32,000 nucleotides of DNA. Origin: Candidatus Omnitrophota bacterium (lineage in GTDB: Bacteria; Omnitrophota; Gorgyraeia; Zapsychrales; JANLHA01). Shown one piece after another: positions 6,260 to 30,586 of the stretch. Made by a program: the position numbers and the translations under genes. The notes below the pieces were generated by a model. The model searched no databases, was not told the DNA's origin, and saw nothing but the letters and a program-made list of their open reading frames with translations. Every line of letters begins with the position of its first letter. Within the stretch, counting starts at the first letter, position 1. The stretch is from contig OY759724.1 of the NCBI GenBank assembly GCA_963662715.1, forward strand, positions 1,470,001 to 1,502,000. Direction: 5' to 3'.

Positions 6260-6271
6260 TGACTAAACTTA

Positions 6272-6305
6272 TCCTTTAATCCGGTCCAGAGAGGCTGGCA
6301 AAGGT
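6272..6305 (+). promoter_or_regulatory. PyrR-binding (anti-antiterminator) hairpin
   Basis: CCTTTAATCCGGTCCAGAGAGGCTGGCAAAGG carries the conserved UCCAGAGAGGCU PyrR binding loop, closed by CCGG/CTGG and CCTTT/AAAGG stems. Confidence 0.75.
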
Positions 6306-6348
6306 ATCTCATGACTGATTATCATTTTATACAAACTGATGGTTGCAA

Positions 6349-6920
<572 letters not shown>

Positions 6921-12647: not shown

Positions 12648-13322
12648 ATGAAAAAACGTATAAAAGTCGATAGCGGTATTCTTTCTCTTGTGATCCTGTT
12701 CACGGGGTTTTTGTATCAATTCCCGCACATCTATCCGTCCAGCCGCCTGTGGGATAATATCCTGGACTGGCTGGGTCTGATCATTGTTCTGAAAGGGACG
12801 TATATCCGTATGGCGGCCCGCGGGGTCAAAAAGGCTCATTCCCGGCAGGGAGAGGGCCTAGTGAAAAAAGGACTGTATTCCGCCGTCCGCAATCCGATGT
12901 ATCTGGGCAGTTTTATGATAGGGATGGGGTTTGTCCTCATTGTCTGGCCGTTCTGGATTTTCCCGGCCTTTGCCTGGCTTTTTTATCTGCGCTTCATCCG
13001 GCAGATTTCCCGGGAAGAGAAGTGGCTCAAGAAGAATTTCGGCGCGGAGTATGAAGCCTACTGCCGGACCGTCCCGCAGCTTTTTCCGAGATGGGATAAG
13101 TTGTGGACGATGAAAGCTTCGACGCTGTTTCCCTGGGAGAAGACGTGGAGCACGAAAGAAGTCAGGGGCTTGATCACCTGGCCGTTACTGGCTGTTGTCT
13201 TGGAGACTTTGCAGGAATGGCGGGTGTTCGGGACCACCCATTTCCTGCATACGGTCATGATATTTTCGGCGGCCGTCGCAACTTTTTTTATCGCAATGTG
13301 GATCCGCTACCAGGAGAAATAA
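12648..13322 (+). CDS. Isoprenylcysteine carboxyl methyltransferase (ICMT) family membrane methyltransferase
   Basis: Several TM helices and GLYSAVRNPMYLGSF plus EEKWLKKNFGAEYEAY motifs typical of the ICMT/PEMT family. Confidence 0.65.
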   Translation: MKKRIKVDSGILSLVILFTGFLYQFPHIYPSSRLWDNILDWLGLIIVLKGTYIRMAARGVKKAHSRQGEGLVKKGLYSAVRNPMYLGSFMIGMGFVLIVWPFWIFPAFAWLFYLRFIRQISREEKWLKKNFGAEYEAYCRTVPQLFPRWDKLWTMKASTLFPWEKTWSTKEVRGLITWPLLAVVLETLQEWRVFGTTHFLHTVMIFSAAVATFFIAMWIRYQEK

Positions 13323-13327
13323 ACGCG

Positions 13328-14098
13328 ATGCATAAAATTCAGCAGACATATACGGTTCTGTCCAACAAGAAAGTTTGCCCGCGGTATTATCATCTTTCTC
13401 TTGACGGCGGAAAACTCCCTCAGAATATTTATCCGGGACAGTTTGTTCATATCCGCGTGAGGGAAGGCCTGGAACCTTTTTTCCGCCGGCCTTTTAGTGT
13501 TTTCCGCGCCCGGAAAACGGTTGATATCCTTTATGACGTTGTCGGGCAGGGAACGGAAATATTAAGCTCCAAGGGCAAAGGGGACCGGCTGGATGTCTTG
13601 GGGCCGCTGGGCAATCATTTTGCCTTGCCGGACAAGAATATCAGGCAGGTCGTCATGATCGCCGGCGGTATCGGTGTGGCCCCGTTTTTAATTTTTTCGG
13701 ATTATTTGAAATCCCATAAAGCCGAAAAGACATTGTTATACGGCGGCCGGACGAAAGCACATGTTTTTGACTTTAAGCCGTTTGTCCGGAACGGCTGTGA
13801 CGTCCATGTCGCCACAGAAGACGGGGGGGCCGGGATTAAAGGCCGGGTGAGCCGGCTTTTTTCCAAAATCCGGAAGGACCCGGAGTCGACCGTGATCTAT
13901 ACCTGCGGCCCGAAACCGATGATGGCCGCGGTGCAGGACTTTGCGCGAAAGCATCGCCTGCCGGGACAAGCCTCCTGCGAGGAAGTTATGGCCTGCGGAT
14001 TAGGGGCGTGTCTCGGCTGCTCTACGAAAACGCACTCCGGGTACAAGACGGTGTGCTATGACGGTCCGGTGTTTGATCTGCAGGAAATATGCTTTTAG
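13328..14098 (+). CDS. pyrK: Dihydroorotate dehydrogenase B electron-transfer (FAD/2Fe-2S) subunit
   Basis: RPFSV FAD motif, GGIGVAP and the cluster motif CEEVMACGLGACLGCS. The start is ATG 13328; the ORF-track start at 13103 overlaps the preceding gene. Confidence 0.9.
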   Translation: MHKIQQTYTVLSNKKVCPRYYHLSLDGGKLPQNIYPGQFVHIRVREGLEPFFRRPFSVFRARKTVDILYDVVGQGTEILSSKGKGDRLDVLGPLGNHFALPDKNIRQVVMIAGGIGVAPFLIFSDYLKSHKAEKTLLYGGRTKAHVFDFKPFVRNGCDVHVATEDGGAGIKGRVSRLFSKIRKDPESTVIYTCGPKPMMAAVQDFARKHRLPGQASCEEVMACGLGACLGCSTKTHSGYKTVCYDGPVFDLQEICF

Positions 14099-14178
14099 GG
14101 AAGGCGGAGCTCGCCGGGGAACAGGTCCTGCGGTTCTGAGGGGTGTCAAGAGGGGGAAACGGGGCCAATGGAAATATT

Positions 14179-14538
14179 ATGAATTATTTTTTATACATTC
14201 TTATCGGACTGGTTGCCGGTACTTTCAGCGGTTTTTTCGGGGTAGGCGGGGCGACGATGTTGATCCCGATTTTCGTTCTGATGTTCGGCATGACGCAGCA
14301 TCAGGCGCAGGGGACGACTCTGGCTGTCCTGCTTCCGCCGGTATTTTTATTCGCGGTATTGAAATATTATCAATACGGGCATGTGAAAGTCAAGATGGCC
14401 CTTATGATCTCGTTGGCGTTTTTTGCCGGCGCTTATTTAGGAGCCTGTGCCGTGCAGGGGGTGGAAGATACGGCTTTAAAGAAAGCGTTTGGCGTCTTGT
14501 TGATTCTCATGGGGCTGCGTATGCTGGTGTTTAAATGA
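14179..14538 (+). CDS. Half-size TauE/SafE-family (sulfite exporter-like) membrane protein
   Basis: MNYFLYILIGLVAGTFSGFFGVGGATMLIP is the typical TauE N-terminus. The product is 119 aa with about 4 TM helices. Confidence 0.65.
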   Translation: MNYFLYILIGLVAGTFSGFFGVGGATMLIPIFVLMFGMTQHQAQGTTLAVLLPPVFLFAVLKYYQYGHVKVKMALMISLAFFAGAYLGACAVQGVEDTALKKAFGVLLILMGLRMLVFK

Positions 14539-14602
14539 CGATAAACGTCAGGGAAAGCGACCCCGCGGGCAGATGGAGTAAAATTCATACCAGGAAAAGG
14601 AC

Positions 14603-15511
14603 ATGAACCTTTCAGTAAAAATCGGGACAGCGGTTTTTCCTAATCCCGTCACGGTTGCGTCCGGGACCTTCGGGCACGCCGAGAAGTATTACCGTTTGGA
14701 GGAAGTCAAAAAGCTGGGGGCTTTGATTCCCAAGACCGTCACGCTTCATGCCCAGGAAGGCAACCCGCCGCCGCGTATCGTAGAGACTCCCGCCGGAATG
14801 CTTAATGCCATCGGCATTGAGAATCCCGGCATTGATGTTTTTATCCGGCAGAAATTATCCTTGTTGCAGAATATTAACGTTCCGCTTATCATCAGCATCC
14901 TCGGGCATTCGGATGACCAGTTCCTCAAGCTTACGGAAAAGTTAAACAAGGCCGAGGGAGTCCAGGCTTTGGAACTGAACCTTTCCTGTCCGAATCTGCA
15001 GAAAAAAGTCCTGGTCGCCCAGGACCCCCGGGCGACGTCCCGGCTTGTCCAGAAGGTCAAAAAGGTTTCCCGTTACCCGGTTGTCGCGAAGCTGTCTCCC
15101 AATGTTACGGATATCACGGTTATCGCCCGGGCCGCGGCAGAGGCCGGGGCCGACGGGGTAAGCTTGATCAACACATTGACAGGCATGCAGATTGATACAA
15201 AATCCCGGCGGCCGGTTCTCGGCAATATCACCGGAGGATTAAGCGGGCCGGCGATCCGGCCGGTGGCTTTGAACATGGTTTATCAGGTCGCGCAGCGCAT
15301 CAAGATCCCGATCATCGCCATGGGCGGTATCATGAACGCTGACGATGCCCTGCAGTTTATCATGGCCGGAGCCGCGATGGTTGCCGTAGGGACCTTTAAC
15401 TTTGTCAATCCGCGCGCGCCTCTGGACGTGCTGCAGGGGATTAAGGCGTATATGAAGAAACAGAAGATTCAGGATATTCATCAACTTTGCGGGAGCGTGA
15501 TAGCGCCATGA
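14603..15511 (+). CDS. pyrD: Dihydroorotate dehydrogenase, class 1B catalytic subunit
   Basis: LELNLSCPN active-site Cys region and GGLSGPAIRP. It lies one gene (the TauE-like ORF) downstream of pyrK. Confidence 0.95.
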   Translation: MNLSVKIGTAVFPNPVTVASGTFGHAEKYYRLEEVKKLGALIPKTVTLHAQEGNPPPRIVETPAGMLNAIGIENPGIDVFIRQKLSLLQNINVPLIISILGHSDDQFLKLTEKLNKAEGVQALELNLSCPNLQKKVLVAQDPRATSRLVQKVKKVSRYPVVAKLSPNVTDITVIARAAAEAGADGVSLINTLTGMQIDTKSRRPVLGNITGGLSGPAIRPVALNMVYQVAQRIKIPIIAMGGIMNADDALQFIMAGAAMVAVGTFNFVNPRAPLDVLQGIKAYMKKQKIQDIHQLCGSVIAP

Positions 15512-17660: not shown

Positions 17661-19418
17661 GTGAGTCGATCAAGAACCGGACAGGTGATAGGGGTCAACG
17701 GGAATATGGTGGCGGTTGCCTTTGCGGACCGGGTTATGCAGAACGAAGTGGCCTATGTCGTGGCAGGGCAGGAGCGTTTGAAGGCGGAGGTTATTCGTGT
17801 TAAGGGTAAACGCGCGGACCTGCAGGTCTTTGAAGACACCCAGGGGATCCGTATTCAGGATACGGTGGAGTTCACCGGGGAACTGCTGAGCGTTGAGCTG
17901 GGGCCGGGGTTGTTGACCCAGGTCTATGACGGGTTGCAGAATCCTCTCCCGGATTTAGCCGAGCAGTATGGTTTTTTTCTGAAACGGGGAGCCTATTTAA
18001 CCGCGCTTGACGATGATTCGACGTGGGAGTTCACCCCGGAGGCCAAAGCCGGGGATAAAGTCCTGGCCGGAGAAAAGCTCGGCGTTGTTCCGGAAAAGGT
18101 TTTCCAGCACTGGATCATGGTCCCTTTCCATCTCCAGGGAGAACTTGAGGTGACAGAGATTGTCGGCAAAGGCACGTATAAAGTCAAGGACACGATCGCC
18201 CGCGTGAAAGACGGACAGGGACAGGTTCATGCCGTAACCATGAAACAGACGTGGCCGGTCAAAGTTCCCATCACGGCGTATGCCCATAAAATCAAACCGA
18301 CACAGCCGCTGGTCACGAAGATCCGCATTATCGATACTCTGGTCCCGGTCGCGGTCGGAGGAACGTTCTGCACTCCGGGGCCTTTCGGCGCCGGCAAAAC
18401 AGTTTTGCAGCATTTGATCAGCCGTCATGCGGACGTGGACATCGTGATCGTCGCGGCCTGCGGGGAACGGGCCGGCGAAGTCGTTGAGCTCCTTAAAGAA
18501 TTCCCGGAACTCAAAGATCCGAAGACCGGGCAGACGCTGATGGACCGCACGATTATTATCTGTAATACCAGTTCCATGCCGGTGGCGGCCCGGGAGTCGA
18601 GCGTATATACAGCCGTGACATTAGCGGAATATTACCGGCAGATGGGAATGAATGTCTTATTGCTGGCGGATTCCACGTCCCGGTGGGCGCAGGCCATGCG
18701 GGAAATGTCCGGACGTCTGGAAGAGATCCCCGGGGAAGAAGCGTTTCCGGCCTACCTGGAAACCCGCATCGCTTCGTTTTATGAGCGCGCGGGCCTGGTT
18801 CAGCTTCATGACGGAAGTATGGGGTCCGTGACGATCGGCGGGTCGGTCTCTCCGGCCGGCGGAAATTTTGAAGAGCCGGTGACCCAGGCGACGCTGAAAG
18901 TCGTCGGCGCGTTTCACGGTTTGTCCCGCGACCGCGCGAACGCCCGCAGGTATCCCTCCATCGACCCTTTGGACAGTTGGAGCAAATACGACAGCTTTAT
19001 TGACGGCGCGAAGGTGCAGAAAGGCGTGGCGATCCTCCGCAAAGCCAGCCATGTCTCCCAGATGATGAAAGTCATCGGGGAGGAAGGGACAACGACGGAA
19101 GAGTTTATCGAGTATTTGAAAGGGGAGTTTTTTGATGCCGTGTATCTGCAGCAGAATGCTTTTGACGAGGTCGACGAAGCGACGCCGGACGAGCGGCAGA
19201 GATATATTTATGATCTGCTCGAGCAGATCATTGACCAGAAATTCAAATTTTCAGACAAAACAACGGCCCGCAGATTCTTTCAGGAACTGAGGCAGAAATT
19301 CATCAACTGGAATTCTGCCGCCTTCCAAAGCGATGAATTCCAGTCCATAGAGAAAAATATCCGGGAACAGTTAACCGCGGATACAAAGACTTTGAACAAA
19401 GAACCAGTCAGAGGTTAA
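17661..19418 (+). CDS. ntpA: V-type ATPase catalytic subunit A
   Basis: GTG start after GGAGGA. Walker [10 protein letters not shown], Walker B LLLADS and the non-homologous insert typical of A subunits. Confidence 0.95.
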
Positions 19419-23751: not shown

Positions 23752-23780
23752 TTGACAGATTGTTTGCCATGTTGTATTAT
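23752..23780 (+). promoter_or_regulatory. sigma70-type promoter for the tRNA-Val/tRNA-Asp pair
   Basis: TTGACA (23752-23757), 17 nt, then TATTAT (23775-23780), 13 nt before the tRNA. Confidence 0.55.
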
Positions 23781-23793
23781 GACAGCACTTTAG

Positions 23794-23870
23794 GGGCGAT
23801 TAGCTCAGCTGGTTAGAGCGTCTGACTTACATTCAGGAGGTCGAGGGTTCGATCCCTTCATCGCCCACCA
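23794..23870 (+). tRNA. tRNA-Val (anticodon UAC), CCA encoded
   Basis: Acceptor GGGCGAT/ATCGCCC and D arm GCTC..GAGC. The anticodon stem TCTGA/TCAGG closes the loop CTTACAT. The T arm is GAGGG-TTCGATC-CCTTC, followed by ACCA. Confidence 0.92.
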
Positions 23871-23932: not shown

Positions 23933-24010
23933 GGGCCCGTGGTGTAGCTTGGTTAACATATCTGACTGTCGATCAGAAGACCGCGAGTTCAAATCTCGTC
24001 GGGCCCGCCA
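23933..24010 (+). tRNA. tRNA-Asp (anticodon GUC), CCA encoded
   Basis: Acceptor GGGCCCG/CGGGCCC and D stem GTGT/ACAT. The anticodon stem TCTGA/TCAGA closes the loop CTGTCGA. The T arm is GCGAG-TTCAAAT-CTCGT, followed by GCCA. Confidence 0.92.
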
Positions 24011-24016
24011 AATAGC

Positions 24017-24050
24017 AAAAAGGACTTCCCCAGAAGGGGAAGTCCTTTTT
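24017..24050. terminator. Bidirectional intrinsic terminator
   Basis: AAAA-AGGACTTCCCC-agaa-GGGGAAGTCCT-TTTT: a perfect 11-bp stem flanked by an A-run and a T-run. Confidence 0.8.
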
Positions 24051-24059
24051 GCATGTAAG

Positions 24060-24361
24060 CCGTGCTTGACAGTTTGAACTCGTATCCTGCGAAGCAGGAC
24101 GGGTTCGATTACGGGTTACCTTAAATAATAATTTAGGGAAAGCCGGAATCCAGGATGCCGCGAAGCGGCACCGCCAATCGAGTCGGGGACCTTATCTGAC
24201 AGGTCCACAGTTTGATTTGCCAGCGAAGCTACGGGTTTGATTGCGGCTTGCCGCAACACATAAGGTGCAGGGTTGATCCATAGCATACCGAAGCACCTTG
24301 TTTCAATATGATCCCCCGTAATCAATATCCCTCCTTTTACCACGAGGCAGGAGGGCTTTTT
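24060..24361 (+). ncRNA. Candidate structured non-coding RNA or repeat-hairpin element of unknown class
   Basis: No credible ORF. There are at least 7 hairpins, including three GCGAAGC-centred ones (24089, 24160, 24223) and a CUUG-loop hairpin (24240-24255). It ends in CCCTCCT..AGGAGGG plus CTTTTT (24329-24361). Strand and ends are uncertain. Confidence 0.35.
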
Positions 24362-24502
24362 CTTGTCCCTTCATTTGTCCCCAATACCCCTTTTTGCGCC
24401 ACGAAAATCCACGCTCTGGCACGGGAACATTTCAAGAGCGCTTGTAATGCAAAAAAATCGTATTTATGTGAAAAAAGGTCAGTTTTTGGGCGTATCGGGC
24501 TA

Positions 24503-24531
24503 TTGACAGAGCGAAAAAGAAGGATGATACT
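24503..24531 (+). promoter_or_regulatory. Possible sigma70 promoter at the core/island boundary
   Basis: TTGACA (24503-24508), 17 nt, then GATACT (24526-24531). Confidence 0.3.
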
Positions 24532-24685
24532 GTGTAGATGATGTCTTATAGTTATAAAGTGTCGATGTGATAATAAAAAATGTAGAAAGAAAAGATAAAA
24601 TTAAAACCTAACAACTACAGCGGCGTCTTTCGCCACCTTCGACAGGCTACGCGTATCCCCGAGTCCTGTTGCGTTAGATAAAACA

Positions 24686-24781
24686 ATGGTAGAAAAAATT
24701 ATATTTACATTATTAAGTACCGTCATTGCATTATTAGCTACAACTATAATACAATATATACATAAACAGCTAACAACTTAA
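24686..24781 (+). CDS. Hypothetical 31-aa hydrophobic peptide (MVEKIIFTLLSTVIALLATTIIQYIHKQLTT)
   Basis: An ATG..TAA ORF read by hand, below the ORF-track cutoff. It has one predicted TM helix, no clear SD, and follows a GC-rich hairpin patch at 24616-24678. Confidence 0.2.
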   Translation: MVEKIIFTLLSTVIALLATTIIQYIHKQLTT

Positions 24782-24882: not shown

Positions 24883-27582
24883 ATGCCAATAAATGATTCA
24901 TTACTAAACCGGCTTTATTCATCAGCAGCTTTGAATACGGATGATTTTAAGCTTTTAAGAAAGCCCAACAATCATCCTTATGCAGCCATTTTTCGACAGA
25001 ATTTTTTTAGTCCAGATTCATGGCGTCAGTCAATTCTGCGAAAATTGAAGGATCGAATTCAATTCTCTAAGGGCGGTGCTTTCTTGGTTAGTGGTTATCG
25101 GGGCACAGGGAAAAGTACCTTTTTGAATTATTTGCTTTATGAGTTGGAACCTAATGATAATAATCCGTCTGATCAGGAAAAGGGAAAGGAAACAATAAAA
25201 TTCATTTCAGCAACCATCAACTTAAGTAGTTTTTCTTTTGAAAATTTAAAGTACGATCTTATTAATTTGATTGCTATTCAATTAGAAGACATGTGGCCAG
25301 AGGGGCAAGATAGAAGGTCGTTAAAATCCCTTCAAGAAGCACTTTTTTTTGCGCAGAGTAAAAGTGATACTAGAAAAGAGCTCAATCGACTGAATATAAC
25401 GCCGAATCTAGAGTTCCTTTCTTTGAAAGTTGGTGGAGAAGTTGAAAGAGAAAAGGTCTCGGAAGCTGTATTGGTTTCTTCGTTAAAGGATAATTTGTAT
25501 TACGTTGAAAAATTGCTTAAGGAGGCTTTGAAAGACTTAAGTTTGGCCAATAAAAGGCTGATTTTTGTTTTGGACGAATTAGACAAACTCCCTCTTTTTA
25601 CTCGTGAATCTGAAATGGTTCGTTCAGGGGATTCGGCGGTAAAGGATGAACAACCCCGCTACACGGATTATATGGATCCAAGAAATATACGATCATTACT
25701 CGAGATGCTTTCGAATTTGAAGAATATATTTTTTGAAAGTGGTGTTATTTTTATCCTTGTCGTTAATAAGAATGTTTTTGATGTCCTAAAATCTAATTCA
25801 AGTCATGAAGATCTTCTGATTCATTTAATAACTGATGCCGTCTATATCCCATGCTACAGGAAAAATGAAATGAGGCTTTCTACTCTTTTTCCAGTTAAAG
25901 TACTTACTTCTAATAGGCATGAACATAAGAGCATATTAGAAAACTTTGAACTTTGTCTCTATTATGAATGCTCTGGGAATTTGCGTGTCTTTTTCCAGAT
26001 TCTCGCTAAGAAAATTAAAGATAAGGAATTAGTTATCACAGCTAATGAAGCGCATTATTTGAAGCAAAAGGTAAAGATATATGAGTTGAATGAACTTATT
26101 TATAACTATGTGTACGATGATGACCCGTCCGCATTCTCCCGCCTTTATGAATTTTTCACAAGAATATATAATTGGATGTTGTCTCGCCCAGAGAATAATG
26201 CTGCTATAACCGAAGAATCTTTCGGTTGGGAGGACGGGTGCCGTTGGGGGAAAATAATTTCTAGCTATTGTCGAGGCTTTGATAATAAACAAGATGAAGT
26301 TACCCGAAATTTAGAAGGATTTTGGCAAGAAGGAGTTGCGTTTAATAACTTTGAAGCTTTATTTACAATACTCAAAGAGAACGATCTTCTTGATAATTTT
26401 CCTGCAACAAATTATCTGATTCGTCGTCTTACTGATTTTAGCAAAATTATTGATGAAAAACGCTTTTTAACTATTGAGCGAGTTGTTCGCAACATGGATT
26501 TTCAAGAGTTTGAGTTTTCTGACACAATTGGCCGGTATCTTATTTATGTGTTGATTCCTTTAAATATAGCAATTCTTTACAACAATGGTGTGTTGGATAT
26601 AAAAAATAATTATCTCCAGTACACATATAGTCATACGCCGCGCCTACCGGAGTATCATTCTGGTTACGAATATGAACTTAAAGGTGACCTTCGGGGCGCC
26701 TTTGATCTGTACACAAAATATATTGCAGATAACCCTACTGATCTGGAGGCGCATAGGAAAAAGTTAACTGCTCTCTATTACATGTTAAAGTTTGGATTTT
26801 ATGACCCAGGAATTGATATTTTCTTGCACTGGGGTGATAGTGTTCAAAAGATGCTTCAAAATAATGTTTTGAATAGTCGCAGGGAAAAACCTTATTTAAG
26901 TTGCATTTTGTTTTTTCAATATCTTCTAAATCAATTTCAGAGATGGGAAAAAGAGACCAATAAAGACAATAAAAATAAAAGTTTTGAAAAAGATAATTTT
27001 GATGTGTTAGAAAAAATGGAGATGTGTTCTGCTGATTTAGGGGCAAGAGTCGAACCTAAAATATGGCATTTTTTCTTTTTGTATTGGACGAGAAATTATT
27101 TTGCTGCCTTTAATGTATTGAATAATGTTGTACGTGAGCAAAGAGACCCATTTCTATTTCTTTTAAATGGATTTATTTTAACACAGATAGGTTTTTATGA
27201 ACGAGCTTGGGAAAATATAAGAAAAGGCATGGAATGTCCCGGGAATTGGTTTATTCAAACACTGACACTGGTCGGGTTGTGGTCCTTAATTTGTAATTTA
27301 CGTGACAATACTGAGGCTCATAATTTTTTGCTTCATCTTAGAGGAGATCCTTGCATTGAAAATTTTGTCCGAAACATCGGCCGACCAGAGAAGCCTCTTT
27401 TAACTGAGTGCAGAGCTATGGCAGATATCTTGATTTTTTTGAATAAGCCTAAAGATGAAGTTCAATATTTCATCGGTCAACAAGAAATGATTCAAAGAAA
27501 ATTTCAGGGTTCTGCAAAATATGCGCAATTTGAGAGAATATATCAACACTTCCTTGCCCGAGTTGTAGGGCGGCTTGGATGA
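24883..27582 (+). CDS. Large P-loop (AAA+/STAND-like) NTPase with a helical, TPR-like C-terminal region and no recognisable effector domain
   Basis: 899-aa ORF in AT-rich DNA with a GAGG RBS. Walker A GYRGTGKST (aa 71-79), Walker B LIFVLDELD (aa 226-234), ILVVNKN, and a sensor-2-like CSGNLRVFF. TPR-like segment YELKGDLRGAFDLYTKYIADNPTDLEAH. Confidence 0.8.
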   Translation: MPINDSLLNRLYSSAALNTDDFKLLRKPNNHPYAAIFRQNFFSPDSWRQSILRKLKDRIQFSKGGAFLVSGYRGTGKSTFLNYLLYELEPNDNNPSDQEKGKETIKFISATINLSSFSFENLKYDLINLIAIQLEDMWPEGQDRRSLKSLQEALFFAQSKSDTRKELNRLNITPNLEFLSLKVGGEVEREKVSEAVLVSSLKDNLYYVEKLLKEALKDLSLANKRLIFVLDELDKLPLFTRESEMVRSGDSAVKDEQPRYTDYMDPRNIRSLLEMLSNLKNIFFESGVIFILVVNKNVFDVLKSNSSHEDLLIHLITDAVYIPCYRKNEMRLSTLFPVKVLTSNRHEHKSILENFELCLYYECSGNLRVFFQILAKKIKDKELVITANEAHYLKQKVKIYELNELIYNYVYDDDPSAFSRLYEFFTRIYNWMLSRPENNAAITEESFGWEDGCRWGKIISSYCRGFDNKQDEVTRNLEGFWQEGVAFNNFEALFTILKENDLLDNFPATNYLIRRLTDFSKIIDEKRFLTIERVVRNMDFQEFEFSDTIGRYLIYVLIPLNIAILYNNGVLDIKNNYLQYTYSHTPRLPEYHSGYEYELKGDLRGAFDLYTKYIADNPTDLEAHRKKLTALYYMLKFGFYDPGIDIFLHWGDSVQKMLQNNVLNSRREKPYLSCILFFQYLLNQFQRWEKETNKDNKNKSFEKDNFDVLEKMEMCSADLGARVEPKIWHFFFLYWTRNYFAAFNVLNNVVREQRDPFLFLLNGFILTQIGFYERAWENIRKGMECPGNWFIQTLTLVGLWSLICNLRDNTEAHNFLLHLRGDPCIENFVRNIGRPEKPLLTECRAMADILIFLNKPKDEVQYFIGQQEMIQRKFQGSAKYAQFERIYQHFLARVVGRLG

Positions 27583-27601
27583 GAGGAGGAAATTAATTGA
27601 T

Positions 27602-29569
27602 ATGCGTGAACGTCGGCTAAAATCGTTAGAGGAATTCATTGCAACAAAAAATGCTTTAATTTGTCTGTATTATGGAGAAAGCAATCAAGGAAAATCAGCT
27701 TTTGTCCGAGACTTTCTTCTTGAGAAAAGAAACGTTTATCAAGTGTGTGAAATTTGTGCAAGCCATGACCAACCCAACATGGTTATTGAACATTTAAGTA
27801 GCATCTTGAATCTTTTGCTTAACAAATCAGACTTAGAAGATTTTGGTAAATATAAAAACCATGTGGATAATTTAAATTTTATAATTCTCGATATAAGAAG
27901 GCTGTTTTACCAAGGAAGCTTAAAGAAAAAGATAGTTTTTTTGATTGATAACGCAGAAACGATTTTTTCGCTTCATCATTGCTTGGGTTCTGACTCTTGG
28001 CAACAGCATGTCATGGAACAGTGGGAGGTTTTTCTCCAGAAACTGACAGAGTTAAATTGTGAAGAATTCGATGTGAGAATTGTTCTCATCGCGAATAAAG
28101 ATATTTTGGAACTTACTCGTTTAAGACCGTATTTGGTTAGAGTCGAGCATTCTAAAGAAAAAATTAGTGATGAATCGAGGAAAGTAGTAATACGTCTTCA
28201 TGAAATCCAAGAAGCCTCTGATAAAGGCGAAAAAATTAATTGTGATGATGGCGATAAAGATCGTCTTGTAAAAAGCGGAAATGCCGAAGTTGTCTTAAGA
28301 TTGACCCCTGATATAAAAGAATTTATGGCAAAGAAGAAAAACGAGTTGATCGAAAATATTAAAAATATTGCAAGTATGAAAGAACAAGAAATAACAACTG
28401 ATGATAATTTGGAATTTATACGAGGAACCTATGAATTTTTTCATTTTATACAAGTGTTAGAGAAGATGAGCTCAGAAGAAAGATACAAAAAAGTCGTTCC
28501 TGATTGTTATGATTGTCTTTGCGAAATCCTGTGTACACCGAAAACAGAGTCGCATTGTTCAGACATCGGAGATACTTTACGGCAGTACGGTTATGGCAAG
28601 CTGTTGTTGAGTATGATTTGTGGCTGTCAACAATATGTTAAGAAATCGCCGAACAACAAAAACAATCGGATGAGGTTAAAAATTTTAGAGGGAAATGTGC
28701 TTTATTATGAGAATGATTATGTTAAAGCCTTAAAGTGTTATTCTGCTGTGACGTCAAATACTAAAATGGGCTTTTTGGCTAAATACGAAATTGTTCGGAC
28801 CCTGCATCAGTTAAATGAACAACGATGGTGGGATGTTTTGTCTGAACAAGAAATAATTTCCCTGCAAGAGATACTTGAGAAATTAAACAAAAAATATAAC
28901 GGCGATTCTAATCAGGAAAAATTCTTTTTGCTTTATAATAATAAATTTGATGATTCCCAAAAAGCTGCATTACTTTTGCCGTTAATGAAGAAAATGATAA
29001 GCCAAATGAAGGAGAAATCTGATTTGAAAAATATTATTTCTCAAGAGAGGATCGATGCAGCTAAAACGATATATTTAAAGAGTGAAAACAAATTGGAAGA
29101 AATAAAAAGCGTTTGTGAAGATTTTCAATTGTTTAAGGACTACAAAAATTCTTATTGGCGAGACTATATTTTTTTTCACCAGATTGACTTGTTTTGTAAT
29201 CTTTTTGAAAAGCAACAAGAAGAAATTTTTGGTTGGTGCAAAAAAATTCGGAATAATCAAAGTAATCAAGAAAAATTATGGGAGTCTCTTTTAAAAAAGG
29301 TGAAAATCTTGATAGAAAAGACTGAAAAGGATTCACAAGCCGGGCTAGGTGATAAAATTTGGCGTGATGCTAAATATGGTGATTTGTATAGTAGGATATC
29401 CTTGATTAAATGGAAGAAAGAAGCGGAATTGGATAAGGCTGAATTGCCCCAAGTTATAAAAAAGGCTGAAGAATCCGCAGCTAAATATCGTGTTTTAGGT
29501 CATAATCAAAAAGCTGAACGGGTCCTTAATCAAATAAGTCAATTAATGCAAGTTCAAGCAACTTTGTAA
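27602..29569 (+). CDS. Second P-loop (AAA+/STAND-like) NTPase with a Lys/Glu-rich helical, TPR-like C-terminus
   Basis: Walker A GESNQGKS (aa 25-32 from ATG 27602), Walker B IVFLIDNAE and IVLIANKD. TPR-like LEGNVLYYENDYVKALKCYSAV. GAGGAGG at 27583-27589 spans the upstream stop. The alternative TTG start at 27575 would overlap ORF1 by 8 nt. Confidence 0.78.
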   Translation: MRERRLKSLEEFIATKNALICLYYGESNQGKSAFVRDFLLEKRNVYQVCEICASHDQPNMVIEHLSSILNLLLNKSDLEDFGKYKNHVDNLNFIILDIRRLFYQGSLKKKIVFLIDNAETIFSLHHCLGSDSWQQHVMEQWEVFLQKLTELNCEEFDVRIVLIANKDILELTRLRPYLVRVEHSKEKISDESRKVVIRLHEIQEASDKGEKINCDDGDKDRLVKSGNAEVVLRLTPDIKEFMAKKKNELIENIKNIASMKEQEITTDDNLEFIRGTYEFFHFIQVLEKMSSEERYKKVVPDCYDCLCEILCTPKTESHCSDIGDTLRQYGYGKLLLSMICGCQQYVKKSPNNKNNRMRLKILEGNVLYYENDYVKALKCYSAVTSNTKMGFLAKYEIVRTLHQLNEQRWWDVLSEQEIISLQEILEKLNKKYNGDSNQEKFFLLYNNKFDDSQKAALLLPLMKKMISQMKEKSDLKNIISQERIDAAKTIYLKSENKLEEIKSVCEDFQLFKDYKNSYWRDYIFFHQIDLFCNLFEKQQEEIFGWCKKIRNNQSNQEKLWESLLKKVKILIEKTEKDSQAGLGDKIWRDAKYGDLYSRISLIKWKKEAELDKAELPQVIKKAEESAAKYRVLGHNQKAERVLNQISQLMQVQATL

Positions 29570-29661: not shown

Positions 29662-30037
29662 AACAAGTTAAGCAATTGTCAGAAATTTAATTTGTGATAC
29701 TATAAAATTCTAGCTTACATTTATTCTGTCATTCATGGTTTATTAAATAAAATTTTTAAGAAACTGTTTAATATTTTTTTGTTTATTTTGTTTGTTTCCC
29801 CTAATATAAATCCTTCCATAGGGGCAACTGATGACTTTGCTGTTGTGACTTTATAGTTCAGTATATTAGAAAGCATATCAGACCAAGGCAGGGGAAATGT
29901 TGAATTAATTATATGCGAACGTCGAGCAAAAGATAAACAAAATTATAAAGAAGGTTTAAAAATTTTAAAAGAATGTGAGAGGTCCAGTGGCATAATATGT
30001 AAGATTAAAAAAAGTAAAAATTTTTATTATCGCGAAA

Positions 30038-30061
30038 AAACCACGGCCATGAGGCCGTGGA
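30038..30061 (+). repeat. IS200 left-end hairpin
   Basis: AAACCACGGCC-atga-GGCCGTGGA, perfect 8-bp stem. Confidence 0.8.
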
Positions 30062-30105: not shown

Positions 30106-30534
30106 ATGAGATATTTGAAGCAAGGACACACAGTTTACTATGCCAGATACCATATTGTCATTTGTACAAGATATAGGCGAAAGATATTGCGATGGGGTTC
30201 GGCGGAGTATGTCAAAAGATGCGTTTTGGGAGTGATGAGACGGTATCCTGAGATCATCATTGAAAAAGTAAATACAGATTTAGATCATATGCATCTTTTG
30301 GCATCAATTCCGCCGAAGATGGCTGTAAGTCATGCAGTAAATCTGATTAAGAGTAACACAGCAAAGCTGATGAGGCGGCGATATAAGTTTTTAGACAAGA
30401 TGTATGTGAAAAAGGCAGGGATATGGTCAGCAGGGTATTTTGTGTCAACGGTTGGAGCCGACGAAGAATCGATAAAGCGATACATCGAATATCAAGGCCG
30501 GGAAGACCGAGGACAAACGCAGATAGAATTTTAG
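30106..30534 (+). CDS. tnpA: IS200/IS605-family Y1 (HUH) transposase TnpA
   Basis: YHIVICTRYRRKIL, HUH motif LDHMHLL and a catalytic Tyr region ESIKRYIEYQ, 142 aa. Confidence 0.9.
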   Translation: MRYLKQGHTVYYARYHIVICTRYRRKILRWGSAEYVKRCVLGVMRRYPEIIIEKVNTDLDHMHLLASIPPKMAVSHAVNLIKSNTAKLMRRRYKFLDKMYVKKAGIWSAGYFVSTVGADEESIKRYIEYQGREDRGQTQIEF

Positions 30535-30562
30535 CTGCGTTTGCACAGTCAAAATAGTTAAG

Positions 30563-30586
30563 AAACCACGGCCGTGAGGCCGTGGA
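30563..30586 (+). repeat. IS200 right-end hairpin
   Basis: AAACCACGGCC-gtga-GGCCGTGGA, 23/24 identical to the left-end copy. Confidence 0.8.

Follow-up and report, generated by a model that had tools for sequence, protein, structure and literature searches.

A candidate lineage-specific structured small RNA in the variable region 3' of a tRNA-Val/tRNA-Asp operon of an Omnitrophota bacterium

In the 32-kb stretch of Omnitrophota DNA analysed here (the window), we resolve a hairpin-dense element of about 300 nt in the variable region 3' of a tRNA-Val/tRNA-Asp operon, and our preferred explanation, held tentatively and with somewhat less than even confidence, is that it encodes a lineage-specific structured small RNA on the + strand. 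The element is non-coding and has an exceptional, well-defined folding potential that is better on the + strand, together with an internal duplication, a terminator-like 3' hairpin and no membership in a described RNA family. We infer its transcription, its transcript ends and a binding partner. A structured small RNA is favoured because the + strand has the better fold, the U-tract and the CUUG tetraloop. The observations that we count for it are the folding z-score, the pair probabilities, the cluster of GCGAAGC words, the co-varying stems of the GAA hairpins, a 46-nt repeat, the GAUURCGG/CCGKAAUC pairs, the U-tract and CUUG loop on the + strand, the lack of a coding signal and a core-like G+C content. 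Those that we count against it are the lack of a sigma-70-like promoter, a closing helix that begins 8 nt past a terminator, the lack of a homologue, unrelated DNA at the syntenic site in four relatives, the moderate strength of the terminator, the G-U counts and the GNA triloops, which belong more typically to stable hairpins of DNA than to RNA.

Folded as + strand RNA, the element has a predicted minimum free energy of -113.7 kcal/mol (z = -5.25) with a structure identical to the centroid, and the helices of this fold have pair probabilities of 0.85-1.0; the z-score of the minus strand is -2.6. Among 212 tiles of 300 nt covering both strands of the whole window, the element tile ranks second (z = -5.15), the tile of the tRNA pair having a value of -5.19. 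The third most negative z-score, -4.8, belongs to positions 18960-19259 of the minus strand, antisense to V-ATPase genes, and may be inflated by a small standard deviation of the shuffles. The predicted layout consists of a first domain organised around a 5-way junction, a second domain and a 3' hairpin followed by U5 (Table 1). Shuffles and folding z-scores concur in bearing out the hairpin-dense, non-random structure that the first-pass annotation had described, and every hairpin that it listed is present, displaced by at most 1 nt.

Table 1. Features of the element, its surroundings and the homologous NTPase-module loci (positions refer to the window, except for L097 and L100, which have their own numbering)
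Feature	Position	Strand	Description
V-ATPase operon	ends 23722		5' of tRNA pair
tRNA-Val	23794-23870		ARAGORN and Rfam
tRNA-Asp	23933-24010		ARAGORN and Rfam
tRNA-Asp terminator	24015-24052	+	perfect 17-bp hairpin with A-tract and T-tract flanks; left boundary of the element
Hairpin-dense element	24060-24361	+	non-coding, about 300 nt, 3' of the tRNA-Asp terminator
P1 5' strand	24060-24067	+	CCGUGCUU; predicted to pair with 24226-24234 (probability about 0.9), closing the 5-way junction
H1	24076-24106	+	GAACUCG/CGGGUUC outer stem with UCCUGC-GAA-GCAGGA; -16.1 kcal/mol, z -4.7
GAA-triloop hairpin	24085-24099	+	TCCTGC-GAA-GCAGGA, 6-bp stem
Direct repeat copy 1	24086-24131	+	CCTGCGAAGCAGGACGGGTTCGATTACGGGTTACCTTAAATAATAA
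H2	24107-24150	+	base GAUUACGG...CCGGAAUC around CCUUAAAU-AAUA-AUUUAGGG hairpin (24119-24138)
Hairpin within H2	24119-24138	+	CCTTAAAT/ATTTAGGG
H3	24153-24172	+	GG-A-UGCCGC-GAA-GCGGCA-CC; -10.9 kcal/mol, z -3.8
GAA-triloop hairpin	24156-24170	+	TGCCGC-GAA-GCGGCA, 6-bp stem
H4	24173-24220	+	AAUCGAG/UUUGAUU (two G-U pairs) with GGACCU/AGGUCC hairpin
Hairpin within H4	24187-24206	+	GGACCT/AGGTCC
Direct repeat copy 2	24220-24263	+	CCAGCGAAGCTACGGGTTTGATTGCGGCTTGCCGCAACACATAA
AGC-GAA-GCT	24222-24230	+	3-bp stem
Third GCGAAGC with UACGG	24223-24234	+	P1 3' strand in the global fold
Domain 2	24237-24325	+	P5 enclosing H6; -28.1 kcal/mol, z -3.5
P5	24237-24246 with 24316-24325	+	UUGAUUGCGG with CCGUAAUCAA
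CUUG hairpin	24241-24256	+	TTGCGG-CTTG-CCGCAA (UUGCGG-CUUG-CCGCAA as RNA); local hairpin competing with the domain 2 fold
H6	24260-24301	+	AUAAGGUGC...GCACCUUGU; contains CCGAAGC
Hairpin within H6	24262-24299	+	AAGGTGC/GCACCTT
CCGAAGC	24288-24294	+
3' hairpin	24329-24361	+	CCCTCCT/AGGAGGG with CTTTTT (CCCUCCU/AGGAGGG with CUUUUU as RNA); probable intrinsic terminator of moderate strength
KAP-type NTPase gene	24883-27582		low-G+C island; 899 aa
Partner gene	27575-29569		low-G+C island; overlaps the NTPase gene; 664 aa
IS200-family Y1 transposase gene	30106-30534		low-G+C island; 6 kb from the element
NTPase-module locus L097	6001-11131		module proteins of 962 and 751 aa
NTPase-module locus L100	5401-10772		module proteins of 840 and 950 aa

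Neither strand of the 32 kb has a GAA-triloop hairpin with a 6-bp stem besides the two in the element, the background rate of GAA hairpins with stems of at least 5 bp being 0.043 per kb-strand (4.9 Mb of strand sequence). These two lie in H1 and H3, which share the loop and the closing pairs and differ at two stem positions, each changed on both sides so that pairing is kept. The word GCGAAGC occurs six times in the window against 4.7 expected and is thus not enriched window-wide; the first-pass annotation had counted a single occurrence outside the element, where there are in fact three (2463, 15086 and 16231). The remaining three lie on one strand within 141 nt. At least three within 150 nt appeared in 0 of 1000 dinucleotide shuffles, and the probability of such a cluster for six random points is p = 0.0013. 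The spacings of 71, 63 and 65 nt between successive motifs are correct as first measured. What had been taken for a third mini-hairpin stands as a word, but its stem is worth a negligible -0.4 kcal/mol as RNA, and in the modelled fold the word is probably better read as the 3' strand of the closing helix P1 than as a hairpin.

The element also contains a 46-nt internal direct repeat with a local alignment score of 38, a score reached in 1 of 2000 shuffles and in 0 of 118 adjacent-block controls. The repeat is made up of GCGAAGC, 1-3 nt, ACGGGTTYGATTRCGG and then further aligned sequence. The motif GAUURCGG occurs twice, each time with a CCGKAAUC partner downstream, and one such pairing makes up the base of H2, the other helix P5. 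Because of the repeat and these paired motifs, the element has the appearance of two tandem modules that have diverged, with a single terminator after them. Tandem Repeats Finder detected no tandem repeats in the element, and we rejected a CRISPR array on this ground, the unit common to H1 and H3 being 17 nt at 76% identity; the lone Rfam CRISPR-repeat match lies outside the element, at 24730, and scores 20 bits against a threshold of 47. A type III toxin-antitoxin RNA (ToxI-like) was likewise rejected, there being no tandem array and the downstream ORF lying 520 nt away, as was the 13-nt ACRGKTTYGAWYT as a protein-binding iteron, which has only two copies, both inside the 46-nt repeat, and shows no enrichment.

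At its 3' end, the closing terminator that had been proposed is present as a hairpin with a U-tract, but it is modest (7 bp, 13-nt loop, -11.7 kcal/mol) and is not called in that form by a consensus terminator scan. Its pair probability is 0.98, and the predicted ensemble contains no strong competitor. The U-tract and the CUUG tetraloop, a loop of the stable type, are found on the + strand only, and the count of G-U pairs (6 on the + strand, 8 on the minus strand) does not separate the strands. At the other end, the hairpin of the tRNA-Asp terminator is very strong (-31.8 kcal/mol, z = -9.5) and, with an A-tract on one flank and a T-tract on the other, bidirectional; P1 starts 8 nt past it, leaving no room for a promoter. 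Our promoter scan covered the sigma-70-type consensus, other promoter types lying outside its coverage, and detected none 5' of the element on the + strand, the nearest being the tRNA promoter at 23752; a TTGACA at 24067 has no -10 partner. The element thus has the 3' intrinsic terminator expected of an independent small RNA gene and, as far as the sigma-70-type scan extends, no promoter of its own. Downstream, a perfect -24 element of the sigma-54 type at 24417-24435 (CTGGCACG) lacks a -12 TTGC at the right spacing and is probably due to chance.

The earlier judgement that the region holds no plausible ORF agrees with our six-frame analysis, in which the longest ORFs (75 aa on the minus strand and 77 aa on the + strand) have no Pfam match and no homologue beyond repetitive-protein noise; there is no coding signal, and we rejected a coding remnant for want of any Pfam match or homologue to the six-frame ORFs. 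The Rfam scan that had been recommended found no family in the element: none of the 4227 covariance models of Rfam 15 matches at gathering thresholds, and at E<=10 on 1.2 kb and on 331 nt there are only three matches, of about 12-13 bits. Resemblances to RNase P CR-I/P4, to the cobalamin core 'AGGGAA..GCCGG..AAUCC', to T-box and glycine riboswitches and to SRP RNA, tmRNA and 6S RNA were noted and rejected, since the corresponding covariance models are silent on the 331 nt with lax filters. A tRNA, tmRNA or tRNA pseudogene was rejected as well: ARAGORN reports only the tRNA-Val and tRNA-Asp genes upstream, and the GGGTTCGAT words in the element have no complementary T-stem 3' strand. That Rfam models work in this genome is indicated by the PyrR binding-site leader detected elsewhere in the window (6269-6379, RF00515, 57 bits), 5' of pyrimidine genes.

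Two related modules before a single terminator raise the question of a cis-regulatory leader. Tandem-aptamer riboswitches, such as the glycine riboswitch, and two-hairpin riboswitches, such as guanidine-II/mini-ykkC, resemble the element in having two related modules, or hairpins with the same loop and co-varying stems, ahead of one terminator; unlike them, the element has no Rfam match and no regulated ORF, and its loops and spacing differ. We regard it as very improbable that the element is an orphaned leader of this kind, a tandem-module riboswitch or protein-binding attenuator cut from its gene by insertion of the neighbouring island. The 3' strand of the terminator is an SD-like AGGAGGG, GAUURCGG and CCGKAAUC could form alternative pairings as each is present twice, the island starts about 180 nt downstream, and a normal leader, the PyrR site, is found by Rfam in the same window. 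However, no + strand ORF follows for 520 nt, and the next one of at least 50 aa outside the element is the KAP-type NTPase gene of the foreign island. There is also no antiterminator that clearly competes with the terminator in the predicted ensemble, no promoter in the sigma-70-type scan, no Rfam riboswitch or leader at E<=10 on 331 nt, and no examined relative in which the element stands 5' of any gene. With no ORF for 520 nt and no strong antiterminator, we did not classify the element as a riboswitch or attenuator leader.

When compared to its relatives, the locus is conserved up to the tRNA-Asp terminator and variable thereafter. The source is a singleton Omnitrophota lineage in the protein collection: its nearest V-ATPase subunit I homologues share 65, 63, 63 and 61% identity, and each of the protein clusters has a single member. 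Through this subunit we located four relatives, all of which keep V-ATPase-K, tRNA-Val, tRNA-Asp and the terminator. The DNA right after differs in each, being a serine-recombinase island in L001, a converging oxidoreductase gene in L002, fur in L083 and an ANTAR regulator in L084, so that the position is a hypervariable hotspot and the element lies outside the conserved tRNA locus. In L001, the closest relative, a large serine recombinase gene (Resolvase/Recombinase/Zn_ribbon_recom) and a DUF2924 gene occupy 12880-14800, and recombinase genes at the tRNA-Asp 3' flank mark the site as an integration hotspot. In our window, no att-site repeat of the tRNA-Asp 3' end was found. By blastn, nhmmer and covariance model R1, the element is absent from all four relatives, which answers in the negative the suggestion that it might always accompany the tRNA pair.

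At such a position, the element could be a non-functional remnant of past insertions and excisions at the tRNA-Asp hotspot, with a local duplication among these events, in which case its hairpins would be historical and unselected; we hold this to be rather unlikely. No homologue of the element, a singleton, is detectable, nothing is conserved at the syntenic site, the position is hypervariable, an internal duplication is present, and the sigma-70-type scan detects no promoter, all of which suit a remnant. Its folding z-score, however, is extreme, on a par with the tRNA genes, with a well-defined ensemble, and the GAA hairpins keep their pairing despite two changes on both sides. Moreover, the equivalent spacer of L002, which is of similar length, shows no excess structure (z = +0.26).

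Wider searches extend the absence of relatives. No homologue was found over about 2.5 Mb in 341 loci, blastn against phage and plasmid collections returned no match to the element, and a second copy of the hairpin unit occurs neither in the 32-kb window nor in 154 kb of Omnitrophota DNA. A genome scan with the pattern GCGAAGC-N(1-6)-ACGGGTTYGATT gave 79 matches, all in unrelated taxa and with a likeness to the element limited to the pattern itself, and a metagenome scan with a stricter 23-nt motif gave none. Looser two-hairpin and three-loop patterns gave at least 120 matches, chance-like among the matches listed; blastn, nhmmer, a hairpin filter and model R1 identified no credible homologue among these, the best of those listed scoring 18 bits at a viral locus with tandem hairpins. 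With no homologue there is no between-species covariation. The conservation or covariation of helices in relatives whose lack was to refute a structured RNA was not found, which formally speaks against the small RNA, but weakly; with the nearest relatives at only 61-65% protein identity, absence does not distinguish between a relic and an RNA that is functional but young.

Some of the pattern matches merit description in their own right. Among the matches listed, the viral contigs L334, L297 and L306 carry three near-identical GCGAAGC-hairpin modules at 62-130-nt spacing. In L334, CAAAATTCAAAATCGCGAAGCGATTTTTAATTTTT is present three times in the first 200 nt of the minus strand, at the contig end, and the viral modules (L334; L297 6080-6300; L306) include CCCGGCGAAGCCGGG followed by GCACAACCTAnAGTTGTAT. 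By analogy, these modules resemble hairpin promoters or terminators of the phage N4 type in repeated form; the arrays were picked up solely through the selectivity of the scan pattern for such modules. On metagenome contig L102, a 72-nt unit is present twice (2470-2600), each copy with the GCGAAGC hairpins TTCGGCGAAGCCGAA and GAACGCGAAGCGTTT.

The C-GAA-G hairpins also have counterparts in single-stranded DNA. Mini-hairpins of the d(GCGAAGC) type are exceptionally stable in DNA (PMC13037366), they occur in G4-type complementary-strand origins and in RSF1010 ssiA (PMC13037366), and the hairpin promoters of phage N4 have a 5-bp stem with a GGA or GAA loop (PMC13037366). By the measure of a GNA or GNNA mini-hairpin with a stem of at least 5 bp for a single-stranded initiation or hairpin-promoter feature (PMC13037366), the element contains two, its C-GAA-G hairpins with 6-bp stems. 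A reading in which the element acts as DNA, or is what remains of mobile DNA that once acted so, is reasonable but in our view unlikely; possible roles would be a priming or single-strand initiation signal or a hairpin promoter formed by the C-GAA-G hairpins in single-stranded DNA, or transposon-end or REP-like hairpins left at the tRNA-Asp integration hotspot. Besides the known occurrence of such stable hairpins in origins, ssiA and N4 promoters, this reading draws on the folding with DNA parameters (z = -5.56 for the + strand, -3.49 for the minus strand), in which the + strand is again exceptional, so that thermodynamics is undecided between RNA and single-stranded DNA. It draws further on the hotspot itself (four relatives that differ after tRNA-Asp, L001 with a serine-recombinase island), on the adjoining foreign low-G+C island with its IS200-family Y1 transposase, on the lack of an RNA promoter in the sigma-70-type scan and on the viral arrays of three GCGAAGC-hairpin modules.

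When compared to the DNA mini-hairpin systems (d(GCGAAGC)/d(GCGAAAGC) in G4-type origins, RSF1010 ssiA and phage N4; PMC13037366), the element shares the C-GAA-G loop with its closing pair, stems of 5-7 bp and the occurrence of several hairpins in a few hundred bases (PMC13037366). It differs in having no cognate primase, replicon or virion RNA polymerase nearby, and, in contrast to the viral arrays, its hairpins do not have flanks that recur in near-identical modules. The 8 kb downstream contain no gene for replication, a primase, a relaxase, an integrase or a virion RNA polymerase, the composition of the element is unlike that of the island, and the reliance of the predicted fold on long-range helices and G-U pairs is more in keeping with RNA than with local hairpins in DNA. 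REP/BIME sequences and PATE/MITE elements derived from IS200/IS605 share with it the extragenic, directly oriented hairpin units, and a Y1 transposase gene is near. Unlike these, the element occurs once in the 32-kb window and nowhere in 154 kb of DNA from relatives, neither a target nor a cleavage motif can be assigned in it, and the end hairpins of the local IS200 copy (CCACGGCC-NTGA-GGCCGTGG) are unrelated to the GCGAAGC hairpins. The transposase gene is flanked by direct-repeat hairpins of the form AAACCACGGCC(A/G)TGAGGCCGTGGA at 30035-30061 and 30560-30586, presumably the left and right ends of the IS200 element.

The element has a G+C content of about 50%, as in the core genome, and from about 24540 this drops to the 30-37% of the NTPase island. 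The first-pass annotation had suggested a functional link between the element and the adjacent NTPase genes. The NTPase and its partner are a conserved two-gene module with homologues of both at L097 and L100 (partner protein matches of E = 9e-29 and 4e-23, respectively). The upstream spacers of the module there are 127 and 103 nt long and contain no GAA hairpin, and model R1 has no match anywhere in either locus. The element thus does not consistently accompany the NTPase pair and, as it is missing from both homologous loci and has a G+C content unlike that of the island, the link is unsupported. The tempting idea that the RNA belongs to adjacent candidate defence genes is thereby removed.

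The island has features of its own. The P-loop NTPase module (24883-29569) recurs in two other genomes in unrelated contexts, NTPase homologues number only four in 5.8 billion clusters, the 664-aa partner begins with a P-loop-like GESNQGKS, and PADLOC gives only a weak mad8 match; from its sequence, the module may be an undescribed defence-type module. At the island edge, a sigma-70-type promoter with a good match (TTGACA-17-GATACT, 24503-24531) lies 5' of a strongly hydrophobic ORF of 31 aa (24686-24781, MVEKIIFTLLSTVIALLATTIIQYIHKQLTT) in front of which no SD sequence is evident, and an opposite-strand promoter with a 10/12 match (24726-24698) lies within this ORF. In sequence, the layout of 24503-24781 is reminiscent of a type I toxin-antitoxin pair or of a small membrane peptide.

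For the structured small RNA that we favour, transcription would run from left to right, by read-through from the tRNA operon or from a promoter type outside the consensus scan, and the transcript would fold into two modules. In the first, P1 would enclose the 5-way junction with two arms capped by identical C-GAA-G triloops; in the second, helix P5 would enclose a long hairpin; and transcription would end at the CCCUCCU/AGGAGGG hairpin and U5. The likeliest contacts for a protein or RNA partner would be the repeated GCGAAGC-ACGGGUUYGAUURCGG segments and the GAA loops, and with such contacts the RNA would act in trans. The closest counterparts are generic orphan lineage-specific small RNAs, which the element resembles in being intergenic, non-coding, about 300 nt long, composed of several stem-loops with a 3' hairpin and U-tract, lineage-restricted and located beside a tRNA/island hotspot. 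It differs from generic small RNAs in having no recognisable promoter and no family and in being a predicted transcript, and it exceeds typical base-pairing small RNAs in size and branching. A bolder reading, which we judge quite improbable, is that the element represents, as its first known member, a class of structured non-coding RNA in Omnitrophota that has yet to be described, and that it would bind a specific protein or ligand. The architecture of that class would be two tandem modules, one with a 5-way junction and paired C-GAA-G triloop arms and one formed by the second domain, followed by a terminator, and the element would then be an orphan only because no close relative of the lineage has been sequenced.

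The structure of the element is real and statistically unusual, and the sequence evidence for it is as strong as for the neighbouring tRNAs. This makes the element a well-documented candidate for expression mapping rather than, as yet, a discovery. If it is transcribed and has a function, it would give a little-studied phylum, whose bacteria are very small and may depend on a host, a new structured RNA, and its identical pair of GAA-triloop hairpins would provide a handle for finding the binding partner.
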